From Candidatus Sigynarchaeum calidifontis (GTDB lineage: Archaea > Asgardarchaeota > Lokiarchaeia > Sigyniarchaeales > Sigyniarchaeaceae): DNA of 16,685 nt. The position numbers and the translations under genes are program-made. Shown here piece by piece: positions 2,067 through 9,485 of this stretch; the first letter of the stretch is position 1; every line of letters begins with the position of its first letter. The notes below the pieces were generated by a model, which saw only the letters and a list, made by a program, of their open reading frames with translations, was not told the DNA's origin and searched no databases. The stretch is from NCBI GenBank assembly GCA_030587475.2, contig JAUQYZ020000220.1, positions 1 to 16,685 of the forward strand, in the 5' to 3' direction.

Positions 2067-3278
2067 GCATGTATTGAGCCGCCCGATGGATTCGATGGCG
2101 GCCGTTCGTGTTCGCCCCCGGGCAGCGATGAAGGCGGAGATGCCACCGCTTGGCAGTCTCATCTGTAAAACTTGGAGATCGACCGAGCGATAATGCTTGC
2201 AAGCAAAATTGGAAGCGTGTCCAGGCAACGTGATGACCTTGAATGCGATAAATTCATTTTGCGGGTTCCAAGGAGGGATAACAGGTTTATCACCTTTATG
2301 ATCAGCGATAAAACGTAGCAAAGACGCGCGATGCACCATTTTCAAGCCAACGAACGACGTGGTGAGCCGGGGGTTCAACTCTACCACGATGGGAGTTCCG
2401 CGCTTGTCGAGAATGAAATCGAAGCCGAAATACCCCTCGAGATGGAATGCACCCGCCGCCGCTCGTGCTACGCGCTCGCACTCGACCGCGAGTTCGGGAT
2501 GCATCGGCCCGACGATTCCGCCCTGATACTTCGAGTTCGAAAACCGCGCGGGAGAAAGGACAATGTTTTGCTCGTTGATTCCGAGTAAAACGGTACCTCT
2601 CCTCGAGGCGACCGCGCTTGCACTGAGCTGCTTGCCAACAACCTGTTCTTGCACGATCATCATGTCACGCGAGAATGACAATCGCTCGTTGGCGGCAATA
2701 GCGTCTTGCAATTCCGTTTCATTTCTCGCAAGGAACACACCGATGCTTCCAGCCCCGCGCTGTGGCTTGACGACAACTGGATAAGGGATGGCGGGAGCAG
2801 TGATAAATTCGTCCATTTTCTGGGTGGGGGGAACTTGGATTCCGGCTGCCGCTAACTGCTGCATCACGTCCTTTTTATTACTCCCAGCACGTACGGCGGT
2901 CGACGGTTGGCTAAGCAAGATGCCATCGTACGATTCGAGCAAGGCCGTGTATGCTTCAAGATAATTGCCGAATTCCGGTGCCACGATGTAGTAATAACGA
3001 ACGCGTGGAGCGAGATCCTTGATCATGTCTTGCACGTTGTTGCCAATACCCACTCGATGCCAGTGCACGCGGGCATCTAGGGACGAGTGCATTGGAACAT
3101 CGATCCCCTCTTGCAATAAGACGTGAGGTTCAAAATTACCATCGATCGCATCGGCGACGAGCGCATCCAGCATCGCTAGTCCCTCGATGCTGATCGATTC
3201 CATTCGTTCCATACCTGAGCCCATCCCGCCCGCGGTGGTGAGCTCTAAAACCAGTATCTCGTCCCTTTTTTCACTCAT
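2010..3278 (-). CDS. mfnD: ATP-grasp ligase, tyramine--L-glutamate ligase (MfnD)-like, methanofuran biosynthesis, 422 aa
   Basis: N-terminal ILVLELTTAGG..SISIEGLAMLDAL and IVAPE, typical of the MfnD/PylC-like subfamily. ATP-grasp motifs PVVVKPQRGAGSIG, IVQEQVVG, GYFGFDFI, VVELNPRLTTS. Alternative start GTG 3287. Confidence 0.72.
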   Translation of the reverse strand: MSEKRDEILVLELTTAGGMGSGMERMESISIEGLAMLDALVADAIDGNFEPHVLLQEGIDVPMHSSLDARVHWHRVGIGNNVQDMIKDLAPRVRYYYIVAPEFGNYLEAYTALLESYDGILLSQPSTAVRAGSNKKDVMQQLAAAGIQVPPTQKMDEFITAPAIPYPVVVKPQRGAGSIGVFLARNETELQDAIAANERLSFSRDMMIVQEQVVGKQLSASAVASRRGTVLLGINEQNIVLSPARFSNSKYQGGIVGPMHPELAVECERVARAAAGAFHLEGYFGFDFILDKRGTPIVVELNPRLTTSFVGLKMVHRASLLRFIADHKGDKPVIPPWNPQNEFIAFKVITLPGHASNFACKHYRSVDLQVLQMRLPSGGISAFIAARGRTRTAAIESIGRLNTCLYGDKDKEIKKDRDVVGG

Positions 3279-7908: not shown

Positions 7909-8469
7909 ACGATTGACGAAAATTATTATATAGTAGTGGCTTAATGCGAGTATTATGCTCGGGATATTATAATTTTTTCATCTATTTTTTGTCATTCAAG
8001 CACGACCCTTGAAAAAATTCGGTGGCCATACTTGTAGGTTACCATGGTTCACGTTTATAAGCACTGCGGCTCATTCTACGATTATAAGGCCTTTTCTGAC
8101 TATCCATCAAATCTTTGTAAAAATTCAAGAATTGACAAGGGGGATTTCCGTTTGTCCGAAGCAGTTTTTTCCATTGATTAACCATCTTTTAAAAGATTTT
8201 TATTTTGAAGTAAACAAAATAAAACGATCAGGTCGTCATAGAGATTCAATCAGGATGGCCGGCATAATGAGATCGACTCCGTGCATTCTTATAAAGGGAA
8301 GGGATATGGCTTGAGCAATAGGCGCGCGGCGGGCAAAAAGTGGCTTATCGAAATGAATAATTAATCTTTTATACGTGGAATTCTAACTACCAAAATAGAG
8401 GTCAGAGTGACGCTTTAAGGAACTTGGTTTACGTTGACTCTATAGGTTAATTTTGAACAATAAAAGTAA

Positions 8470-8557
8470 TTGCGAAAACCACGAAATTTAAGTAAAGGAT
8501 TGAGATATTCGCAAAAGTGTACACAAAATCTTGCGAAACCAAACGTTTTTAAGTGAA
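8470..8557 (+). promoter_or_regulatory. Tandem promoter-like units with TTGCGAA boxes
   Basis: TTGCGAAAACCACGAAATTTAAGT (8470-8493) and TTGCGAAACCAAACGTTTTTAAGT (8531-8554), 61 nt apart. Inverted copy TTCGCAA at 8508-8514; GTGTACAC palindrome at 8517-8524. Confidence 0.6.
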
Positions 8558-8579
8558 TTTCACCAATACAACAACAGAA

Positions 8580-8837
8580 AAATGAATTCGGAATGGGTGT
8601 TCAAGATCGAATAATAGATATCGGTGACCCCTAAAGGACGAATAAACCTCGAGACGGGCGCCCGCACGGCGTTCGATCGACTACATAACCCGGAAAACAA
8701 AAAACCATGGGTAGAACACTTGATTCGTCAGGTGTCCTACTTCTTTTATAGCGAAGCCTCATGGCTGCGCCTCGTGCAACGCTGTAAGGCCTTTTATCGC
8801 TATATCGCCCTCCCCTCTCCCCTCTTTTATTTTTTTT
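8580..8837 (+). ncRNA. Candidate structured non-coding RNA (~250 nt, five hairpins), family unrecognised
   Basis: GC-richer island between a TATA (8546-8553) and a T-tract (8825-8837). Hairpins at 8586-8643, 8649-8680, 8688-8712, 8711-8740 and 8747-8804. Several G-U pairs form only on the + strand. Confidence 0.55.
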
Positions 8838-8988
8838 CCTGGCGGCTTGTGTTCTACCCTTTCTCCCCTTTCTCAACGATTTCTCGTGCATAGGCTGTTT
8901 TTTGATCCAGCGCCAGCTTCGAGAACGTAAGAATTACGTTGAGAGGGCAAATCAAGGGAAAGATATGGAAAAAAAGGAGAGAATGATT

Positions 8989-9306
8989 TTACCCGAACTT
9001 GTCCCAGAACGCTGCGATTAAAATTGGGATACCGCCCCAATTGCCACCCGGAATGAGGATCACGAGGCCGACGATCAGCATTGGGATGAACTCGGTCGGG
9101 ATCTTGAAGAAAAACTTCGGCACGACGTTTAATGTACACAAGATAGCGAGCGCAAGGAGAACGACGATCACGGCCATGATGAGACCACCAATCCAACCCC
9201 AGCCCCATCCGCCTGTCCACCAGAAGATGTTTATGATAGCGAGGATAAGGCTCACGATCGCGCCGATCTTGTAAAGTAACTCGATAGTAGCCTTATTTTT
9301 TGCCAT
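8989..9306 (-). CDS. Small membrane protein (~4 TM, Gly/Trp-rich loop), 105 aa
   Basis: Hydrophobic segments LLYKIGAIVSLILAIINIFWW, IGGLIMAVIVVLLALAILCTL, FIPMLIVGLVILI, WGGIPILIAAFW. Pyrimidine-rich terminator-like tract follows on the minus strand. Confidence 0.85.
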   Translation of the reverse strand: MAKNKATIELLYKIGAIVSLILAIINIFWWTGGWGWGWIGGLIMAVIVVLLALAILCTLNVVPKFFFKIPTEFIPMLIVGLVILIPGGNWGGIPILIAAFWDKFG

Positions 9307-9485
9307 GTATGTCACTGTTGATTGTGTTCAATCGGGATTGTATTTCCGACACGACCACTTGCAGCTATCCCCCTCTTATTGCGGAGATGTTCGTATAAGT
9401 ATCGTCATCTGGCTAGTTTTCATCGCTATAGCTCACCGAAACTGCAGCTGTACCTTTTTTTAAGTTTCCAGGGGAACATGTGTTC

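Follow-up and report, generated by a model that had tools for sequence, protein, structure and literature searches.

What, if anything, is encoded between positions 8320 and 8988 of contig JAUQYZ020000220.1, where no convincing gene was found? The contig belongs to the Asgard archaeon Candidatus Sigynarchaeum calidifontis and was analysed over its full length of 16,685 nt, which we call the window. A preliminary description made from the letters alone had placed in this interval a structured RNA of about 250 nt (8580-8837, + strand) with its own promoter and terminator. We conclude that positions 8576 to ~8865 of the + strand probably encode a structured non-coding RNA (ncRNA) of ~290 nt that is restricted to one lineage; what had been observed is partly confirmed, and its interpretation is partly supported. 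That the element is real and non-coding is very likely, and the architecture set out below, including a helix that spans a terminator, we consider likely. We rate the element as a new family of RNA whose general kind is familiar and whose unusual feature is that helix.

The genome of the window (G000; 5.0 Mb, 89% complete, with the window as contig C119) holds two of the eight related copies found, the second being diverged and located on contig C85. Three other genomes hold one copy each, namely the orthologue in the sister genome G001, a much more diverged copy in G002, which belongs to the same family, and a weak match in a fourth genome of the family, G003. The last was returned under laxer filters by a covariance model built from the 3′ domain (R1), and by eye it has the same parts in miniature. 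Three metagenome contigs (L063, L064 and L065) came from a scan with the best-conserved motif. Seven copies (window, C85, G001, G002, L063, L064 and L065) are strong. When G000 was searched with the DNA and with the model, only its two copies were returned, and R1 gave known copies only across 151 order-sampled genomes (~147 of them genomes other than those above) and 151 class-sampled genomes. Motif scans, with new loci checked by the model, gave just G001, G002 and chance matches among genome contigs, and chance matches among viral contigs. As far as searched, the RNA family appears to be confined to one family-level Asgard lineage, with one or two copies per genome.

Two open reading frames (ORFs) overlap the region, one of 89 amino acids (aa) on the + strand and one of 86 aa on the − strand. 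No Pfam domain was found in either, and 5.8 billion predicted proteins contained no relative. The paralogues do not share a reading frame, and the alignment of the window with C85 contains indels of 36, 31 and single nucleotides. We regard the element as non-coding because the frame is broken and no protein relatives were found. The least probable of the explanations that we weighed is that the locus is a mobile repeat, such as a miniature inverted-repeat transposable element (MITE), or a small protein gene. The two overlapping ORFs and the presence of two copies in one genome would fit such an origin, but the broken frame and the absence of relatives among the 5.8 billion proteins speak against a protein, and two copies in 5 Mb, with syntenic orthologues and no terminal inverted repeats at the homology borders, do not describe a MITE, a possibility raised in the preliminary description. 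The same description had recognised no known RNA class, and our searches agree with it. In Rfam 15 at gathering thresholds, no family matched anywhere in the window, including archaeal signal recognition particle (SRP) RNA, RNase P RNA, C/D and H/ACA small RNAs (sRNAs), Y RNA, 6S RNA and riboswitches. At E-values up to 10 on 8300-9000, the sole match was a chance one to mir-320 (8868-8962, E = 6), and ARAGORN found no tRNA.

Comparison of the copies supports a long-range helix of ~20 bp, in which a segment that we call the hub pairs with a 3′ arm located downstream of a U-tract (coordinates in Table 1). The helix encloses the 3′ half of hairpin H4, hairpin H5, the C/U-rich tract CGCCCUCCCCUCUCCCCUC (8806-8824) and the U-tract UUUUAUUUUUUUU (8825-8837). 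It is the minimum free energy (MFE) structure in 6/7 copies when the 3′ domain is folded alone, and in G002 it is found within the full-length fold; the RNAalifold consensus also contains it. In a model-guided alignment of the seven copies, 91% of the cells were paired, compared to 35-45% when the partners were slid by 1-3 columns. Eighteen of 37 pairs were compensatory, with both sides changed, and none of 500 shuffles reached the observed values. The long-range helix alone accounts for 21 pairs, of which 10 are compensatory, with 93% of its cells paired. Its arms in L063 (GGGCAGGGC/GCCCUGCCC) and in G002 (AGGAUCGG/CCGAUCCU) are completely different from those of the window. The duplex energy was -32 to -39 kcal/mol in all seven copies, compared to -11 to -19 kcal/mol for shuffled arms (in the window, -31.6 vs -11.4 kcal/mol), and the duplex energies show that the diverged copies prefer their own partner arm. 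Covariation among homologues, which had been proposed as a check, was found, with compensatory pairs in H2, H5 and the long-range helix.

Since a DNA inverted repeat would covary too, we counted the wobble cells. On the + strand there were 19 G-U cells vs 4 A-C cells overall and 9 vs 0 in the long-range helix, and the arms carry asymmetric bulges and internal loops. Both the G-U bias and the bulges speak for pairing in a + strand RNA, and against a DNA repeat or an RNA from the minus strand. The + strand had also been preferred in the preliminary description, and the MFE z-scores point the same way: for 8580-8837 they were -1.92 (+) and -1.12 (−), which is modest support from a single sequence, and for 8577-8868 they were -1.71 (+) and -0.02 (−). 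We consider it very unlikely that the arms are a DNA-level inverted repeat (an invertible segment, a recombination site or a cruciform) flanking a 105-bp cassette at 8733-8837, with covariation arising because both arms must match. The arms do change together, there is a perfect 11-bp inverted repeat (I2), and the cassette contains a polypurine/polypyrimidine mirror repeat. However, a DNA repeat should show G-U and A-C cells equally, the arms are bulged, no recombinase was found among the neighbouring ORFs scanned, and all eight copies have the same orientation. An RNA from the minus strand, in which the helix would be followed by UUUUUUGUUUU (8706-8692) and purine-rich GAGGGGAGAGGGGAGGG would be exposed, is equally improbable. 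In its favour, a T-tract comes right after the helix in five copies and the MFE is numerically lower (-81.8 kcal/mol), but the minus-strand z-score is the -0.02 given above, the G-U bias favours the + strand, the TATA and operator module is on the + side, no TATA-like element is present past 8860, where conservation fades to none beyond 8870, and G002 and L063 are without the minus-strand T-tract.

Within the + strand RNA, the long-range helix would act as a clamp around the most conserved part of the molecule, and all copies share a core that consists of the clamp, UUCUUUUA, a hairpin and (U)UCGCCCUCCCCUCUCCCCUC-UUUUAUUUU. In H5, 7 of the 10 outer and middle pairs are compensatory. The C/U-rich tract is identical in six copies, with one extra C in G002 and a shortened form in G003. 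Its predicted unpaired probability is 0.70-0.98 in the long form of the RNA and 0.40-0.92 in a short form that would end at the U-tract, compared to ~0.40 for the rest of the molecule. The clamp thus seems to keep the pyrimidine strand exposed. Three copies of the motif (U)CUUUUAU are present (8742-8749, 8791-8800 in the H5 internal loop, and 8823-8830), the flanking two being kept in all strong homologues, and these copies could be repeated sites for a protein that reads U-rich sequence. As DNA, CTCCCCTCTCCCCTC (8810-8824) is a perfect polypyrimidine mirror repeat of the H-DNA-capable kind, and it also reads as two tandem UCCCCUC heptamers. The miniature copy of G003 (L085 1400-1640; G003:C1 ~1425030-1425270) combines a TATA box with a short clamp, a hairpin of GGCCC-GUUU-GGGCC and the tract UUUCGCCCCUCCCCCCUCUUUUAUU.

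The 5′ domain is more variable. All five stems of the preliminary description, H1 to H5, are present in the positions where they had been drawn (H1, H2 and H5 as in Table 1, H3 at 8688-8712 and H4 at 8711-8740), and the MFE and centroid folds of 8580-8837 recover H2, H4 and H5. In H1, the outer helix pairs with changed letters when L064, G001 and C85 are compared in alignment A6 (AUUCG/CGAAU, GGUUC/GAACC and GACA/UGUC), and the GGGU/ACCC helix is invariant. H2 has two compensatory pairs among four copies. Two further helices are predicted. P1, a 4-base helix, would close the 5′ domain directly beside the long-range helix and has one compensatory G-C pair, in C85; P0, which is short and weakly evidenced, would join the 5′ and 3′ ends and reads AGAG/CUCU in C85 in the same alignment. 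The other close copies contain an extra hairpin of 36-45 nt ahead of the A-rich linker.

Table 1. Features of the RNA gene and its upstream region, in window coordinates.
Feature	Position	Strand	Remarks
Distal promoter-like module copy	8470-8496	+	TTGCGAA box, then A/T-rich TATA-like stretch; putative function
Operator-like palindrome TTGAGA-TAT-TCGCAA	8500-8514		Consensus TTGCGA-N3-TCGCAA; from genome scan
Proximal promoter (putative)	8531-8557	+	TTGCGAA box 8531-8537; TATA-like TTTTTAAG 8546-8553
Whole predicted RNA, long form	8576-8865	+	~290 nt; from homology extent, P0 and long-range helix; predicted ends
Short form	would end in U-tract, ~8837	+	Predicted
P0, 5′ strand AGAAA	8576-8580	+	Pairs with UUUCU 8860-8864; predicted in full-length folds of window, L064 and G001
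P1, 5′ strand AUGA	8582-8585	+	Pairs with CCAU 8705-8708; RNAalifold consensus of four copies
H1 domain	8586-8643	+	Outer AUUCG/CGAAU, GGGU/ACCC, inner hairpin
H2 hairpin, UCGA..CGGGCGCC-loop-GGCGUUCG..UCGA	8649-8680	+	MFE and centroid folds
A-rich linker GGAAAACAAAAAA	8692-8704	+	Kept in five copies, missing in L063 and G002
Hub segment GGGUAGAACAC..G..UCGUCAGG	8709-8732	+	5′ arm of long-range helix; also 5′ arm and loop of H4
H4 local hairpin	8709-8742	+	Competes with long-range helix
H5 hairpin	8747-8804	+	Inverted repeat I8; flanked by UCUUUUAU (8742-8749, 8823-8830), direct repeat D6
C/U-rich tract CGCCCUCCCCUCUCCCCUC	8806-8824	+	Predicted single-stranded
U-tract UUUUAUUUUUUUU	8825-8837	+	Three U4 runs; conserved in all copies; inside conserved helix
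3′ arm CCUGGCGGC..GUGUUCUACCC	8838-8859	+	Pairs with hub 8709-8732
P0 3′ strand UUUCU and second tandem hub-complementary motif UUCUCCCCU	8860-8869	+	Direct repeat D5; alignments

The hub has more than one partner. H4 forms in 7/7 strong copies with -10 to -23 kcal/mol, its letters being changed in L063, G002, C85 and L065, and in these four copies, in which the hub itself has changed, both of its partners have changed too. On fixed alignment columns the covariation of H4 is weak because the pairing register shifts between copies, and per-sequence folds were relied on instead. H3 uses the same hub, and in L064 this pairing amounts to 9 bp (UUCUACCCA with UGGGUAGAA). The complementarities behind H3 and H4 are thus real, but neither stem can coexist with the better-supported P1 (8582-8585/8705-8708) and long-range helix (8709-8732/8838-8859), and to that extent the fold of the preliminary description does not hold. 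Since H4 is found in every copy and yet is excluded by the long-range helix, which is two to three times more stable, the RNA looks bistable. More hub complements follow the 3′ arm, with UUCUACCCU and UUCUCCCCU in tandem in the window. The tandem 9-mers TTCTACCCT and TTCTCCCCT are seen after the long helix at window 8852-8869; in L064 both tandem copies are perfect complements of the hub and a further copy is present upstream of the A-rich linker, which gives the hub up to four possible partners. We propose that the hub would switch between two states, being engaged either in the long-range clamp or in local pairing, as H4 or with the upstream ACCC (H3). H4 would form during synthesis or in molecules that end at the U-tract, and the stabler clamp would form only once the polymerase is past the U-tract.

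Where the RNA ends therefore bears on how it folds. In Methanococcus, termination was most efficient and aCPSF1 bound most strongly where at least two U4 tracts were present, and a Lokiarchaeota aCPSF1 orthologue cooperated with U-tracts likewise (PMC8716108). The tract TTTTATTTTTTTT is present at 8825-8837; as RNA, UUUUAUUUUUUUU contains the at least two U4 tracts of an archaeal terminator and is, by sequence, both a strong terminator and a site of the aCPSF1-binding type. The earlier placement of a terminator is accordingly sound as to the signal and incomplete as a reading, because the covarying helix spans the tract. Homology runs past the T-tract to about 8865-8900 and pairing with covariation continues beyond 8837 to ~8865, so the element proposed at ~250 nt is supported but its end at 8837 is not, and a length of ~290 nt is indicated. 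In G003, the inner U-tract is short (UUUUAUU) and a hairpin with a U7 run lies ~25 nt after the 3′ arm, a layout that fits a transcript including the 3′ arm. Both a short form (~8837, with the H4 fold) and a long form (at least to 8860, clamped) are likely to be made, and the pattern of conservation suggests that the long form, at least, is under selection.

An alternative for which we keep a modest place, although we consider it unlikely, is an sRNA of ~260 nt that always ends at the U-tract (8837), takes the H3/H4/H5 fold and uses its C/U-rich 3′ tail as a pairing seed, the downstream complement being outside the functional RNA. The three U4 runs belong to the strongest class of archaeal terminators (PMC8716108), H4 is found in every copy, and a free C-rich 3′ tail resembles known sRNA seeds. 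Against this, covariation between the hub and the downstream arm is seen in every copy, with a G-U bias, which is hard to explain if the arm is untranscribed; homology continues past the tract, and the U7 terminator of G003 comes after the 3′ arm. In addition, the tail is predicted to be less accessible in the short form, and its targets are not enriched.

Upstream of the longer RNA, a putative promoter can be recognised by comparison. The TTGCGAA box and TATA-like stretch occur twice in the window as the direct repeat D1 (8470-8496 vs 8531-8557, 27 nt, 70% identical, 61 nt apart), and the proximal copy predicts a transcription start at ~8575-8577. A TATA-like box with TTGCGA/TCGCAA boxes is found upstream of 6/7 strong copies (window, L064, G001, C85, G002 and L063), and in C85, L064, G001, G002 and L063 the TATA box is preceded by the palindrome or its half-sites. 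In four copies (window, L064, G001 and C85) P0 begins 20-23 nt after the TATA box. The earlier suggestion that the RNA has its own promoter is strengthened by this conserved arrangement of TATA box, operator-like boxes and first paired base, and we infer that transcription would start from this promoter. Genome-wide, the palindrome with a spacing of 3 and at most one mismatch gave 28 matches compared to 9-16 at other spacings; most of the 28 are intragenic, so the excess says little about a regulon. The promoter module is also seen at L063 7540-7600 and 7750-7815, and in the upstream regions of L004 and L005.

The gene context agrees with a stand-alone RNA. The next gene (8989-9315, − strand) is convergent and conserved as such, and its membrane-protein product is 91% identical in L064 and 50% in G001, the orthologues of the RNA being syntenic. 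A riboswitch or attenuator leader was thereby rejected, because the element does not lead into a gene, in line with the earlier statement that it is not a 5′ untranslated region (UTR). The protein from 8989-9315 has 108 aa, is hydrophobic and rich in Trp and Gly, and has no Pfam domain. A B12-binding gene is kept at L063. The paralogue on C85, whose neighbours are without a Pfam domain, and the distant copies lie in unrelated gene contexts. Neither a 59-aa AbrB-like ORF nor a 101-aa upstream ORF of the window has a counterpart beside any homologue, and the link that had been drawn between the RNA and the AbrB-like gene is not sustained. T-tracts are present on both strands, and the element has a + strand region on one side and a convergent − strand gene on the other, so that it might be thought to act in cis, terminating or insulating transcription between convergent genes, or to belong to a 3′ UTR. 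There is little chance of this, as the convergent gene has its own T7 tract (8963-8973), the upstream ORF ends 260 nt before the element and is separated from it by the promoter-like module, unrelated contexts surround the paralogue and the distant copies, and a covarying structure of ~290 nt exceeds what a terminator needs. The record of the G002 copy (L028 / L005, WJJB01000235.1) is titled Candidatus Bathyarchaeota, and the genome was placed in the family of the window with a Promethearchaeota metagenome-assembled genome (MAG); the label is probably outdated, and G002 also carries the Asgard-family RNA.

These features can be assembled into a working model. The RNA would be transcribed from its own TATA promoter, with TTGCGA/TCGCAA operator boxes, and would fold into a three-way junction in which the 5′ and 3′ ends meet, formed by P0, the variable 5′ domain (P1, H1 and H2) and the conserved 3′ domain. 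The 3′ domain would be closed by the ~20-bp helix around H5 and two single-stranded pyrimidine strands, UUCUUUUA on one side and near-invariant CGCCCUCCCCUCUCCCCUC followed by UUUUAUUUUUUUU on the other. We tentatively suggest that the clamp presents the C/U-rich and U-rich strand as a binding platform. Its partner would be a reader of single-stranded pyrimidine-rich sequence, such as a KH-domain or Sm-like protein and possibly the termination factor aCPSF1, or else a purine-rich RNA, and the balance of folds and isoforms would tune the exposure of the pyrimidine strand. A binding platform is favoured because the tract is long and near-invariant and the motifs UCUUUUAU and YUCYCCCU are repeated, and also, by elimination, because the partners that we tested are unsupported. 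More speculative, and improbable in our estimate, is a two-state regulator built around the terminator, in which the clamped U-tract and C/U tract would serve as a non-cleavable, high-affinity decoy for aCPSF1/FttA, Sm-like or KH proteins; it would be an archaeal counterpart of the 6S/7SK type of RNA that regulates transcription globally, under a dedicated transcription factor that reads TTGCGA-N3-TCGCAA.

The partners considered in the elimination were of several kinds. In a genome-wide search for complements, the only long matches fell on the RNA genes; the pair that came next, from the termini of contigs C33 and C204, was rejected since it looks like the antisense of a coding region. These two contig ends (C33 ~23000-23425 and C204 ~45940-46275) share 337 nt at 93% identity, a sign that the MAG contains redundant assembly or a mixture of strains. 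A telomerase-like or retron-like template role is unsupported, because no reverse transcriptase (PF00078) was found in G000 or among the neighbouring ORFs scanned, and no genomic (GAGGGGA)n arrays were found, the 17-mer with at most two mismatches occurring only at the two RNA genes. A Y-RNA-like ribonucleoprotein is likewise unsupported, as TROVE/Ro60 (PF05731) was not found in G000 at its completeness of 89%, where the controls matched as expected. Targeting through an anti-Shine-Dalgarno mode is also unsupported, with no enrichment at 3163 crude gene starts and little Shine-Dalgarno use in G000.

Several results weigh against the reading that we prefer. The comparison rests on only eight sequences, three of them close relatives. 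The alignment on which pairs were counted had been fitted to the model, and most of the support for P0 and P1 comes from a single diverged paralogue. The z-scores of the MFE folds do not stand out. Transcription, and with it both ends of the RNA, is predicted from sequence, and because the U-tract belongs to an efficient class of terminator, most transcripts may stop before the 3′ arm. The search for targets gives no help either. Duplexes of the C/U tract were not enriched at gene starts, with a mean of -10.3 kcal/mol vs -11.7 kcal/mol for internal controls (3163 crude starts, a weak negative), and GGAGG was found upstream of 3.5% of 2089 crude starts of long ORFs, and G is mildly enriched at -12 to -8. 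The assembly of G000 contains no rRNA, and the only 16S rRNA in the family is that of G002, with which the best duplex of the C/U tract has -33.6 kcal/mol, a marginal value given a background of up to -31.2 kcal/mol.

Comparison with known systems places the RNA near several of them and within none. The Y RNAs are bound by Ro60 and occur in animals and some bacteria, and the likeness to them is one of shape only: a small stand-alone architecture of the abundant ncRNA type that may serve as a protein platform, in which a long stem closes a large, pyrimidine-rich single-stranded loop and an oligo-U tract is present. Unlike the Y RNAs, it has no match to the Rfam Y_RNA family and no Ro60 gene was found alongside it in G000, its U-tract lies in the loop and not at the 3′ end, it is ~3x larger and it has an extra 5′ domain. 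RsaE/RoxS of the Firmicutes and sRNA41 of Methanosarcina are regulatory sRNAs with C-rich motifs, and the archaeal ones mask ribosome-binding sites. The RNA described here resembles them as a stand-alone gene with a putative dedicated transcription-factor site and a C-rich strand predicted to be exposed, with which G-rich sites of mRNAs might pair, but its tract of 19-33 nt is near-invariant and much longer than a seed, and Rfam holds no match to its sequence or structure. It is also like the titrating RNAs CsrB/RsmZ, 6S and 7SK in carrying repeated single-stranded motifs on a stable scaffold (UCUUUUAU 2-3x, YUCYCCCU 4-5x), which makes titration possible, although their motifs and folds are unrelated. 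With at least two U4 tracts, UUUUAUUUUUUUU is like the U-tract terminators read by aCPSF1/FttA (PMC8716108). It differs from those terminators in being bracketed by a covarying helix, the 3′ arm of which lies downstream. We know of no terminator that has been described as bracketed in this way. As a lineage-restricted RNA that is supported by covariation and has no Rfam family or assigned function, it finally resembles OLE, ROOL, GOLLD and raiA, from which it differs by its smaller size and its architecture. Full-text literature searches returned no paper that describes the motif or regulatory RNAs in Asgard archaea.

The element would be a defined, covariation-supported RNA family for a lineage of the Asgards, the closest prokaryotic relatives of eukaryotes. 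A conserved helix that bridges a textbook U-tract terminator implies programmed read-through or a competition between folding and 3′-end formation, and a helix over a terminator is unexpected under current models of archaeal termination. If confirmed, the RNA would provide a natural test case for RNA structure versus aCPSF1-dependent termination, and its near-invariant C/U tract would offer a handle for an RNA-binding partner in organisms that are hard to culture.

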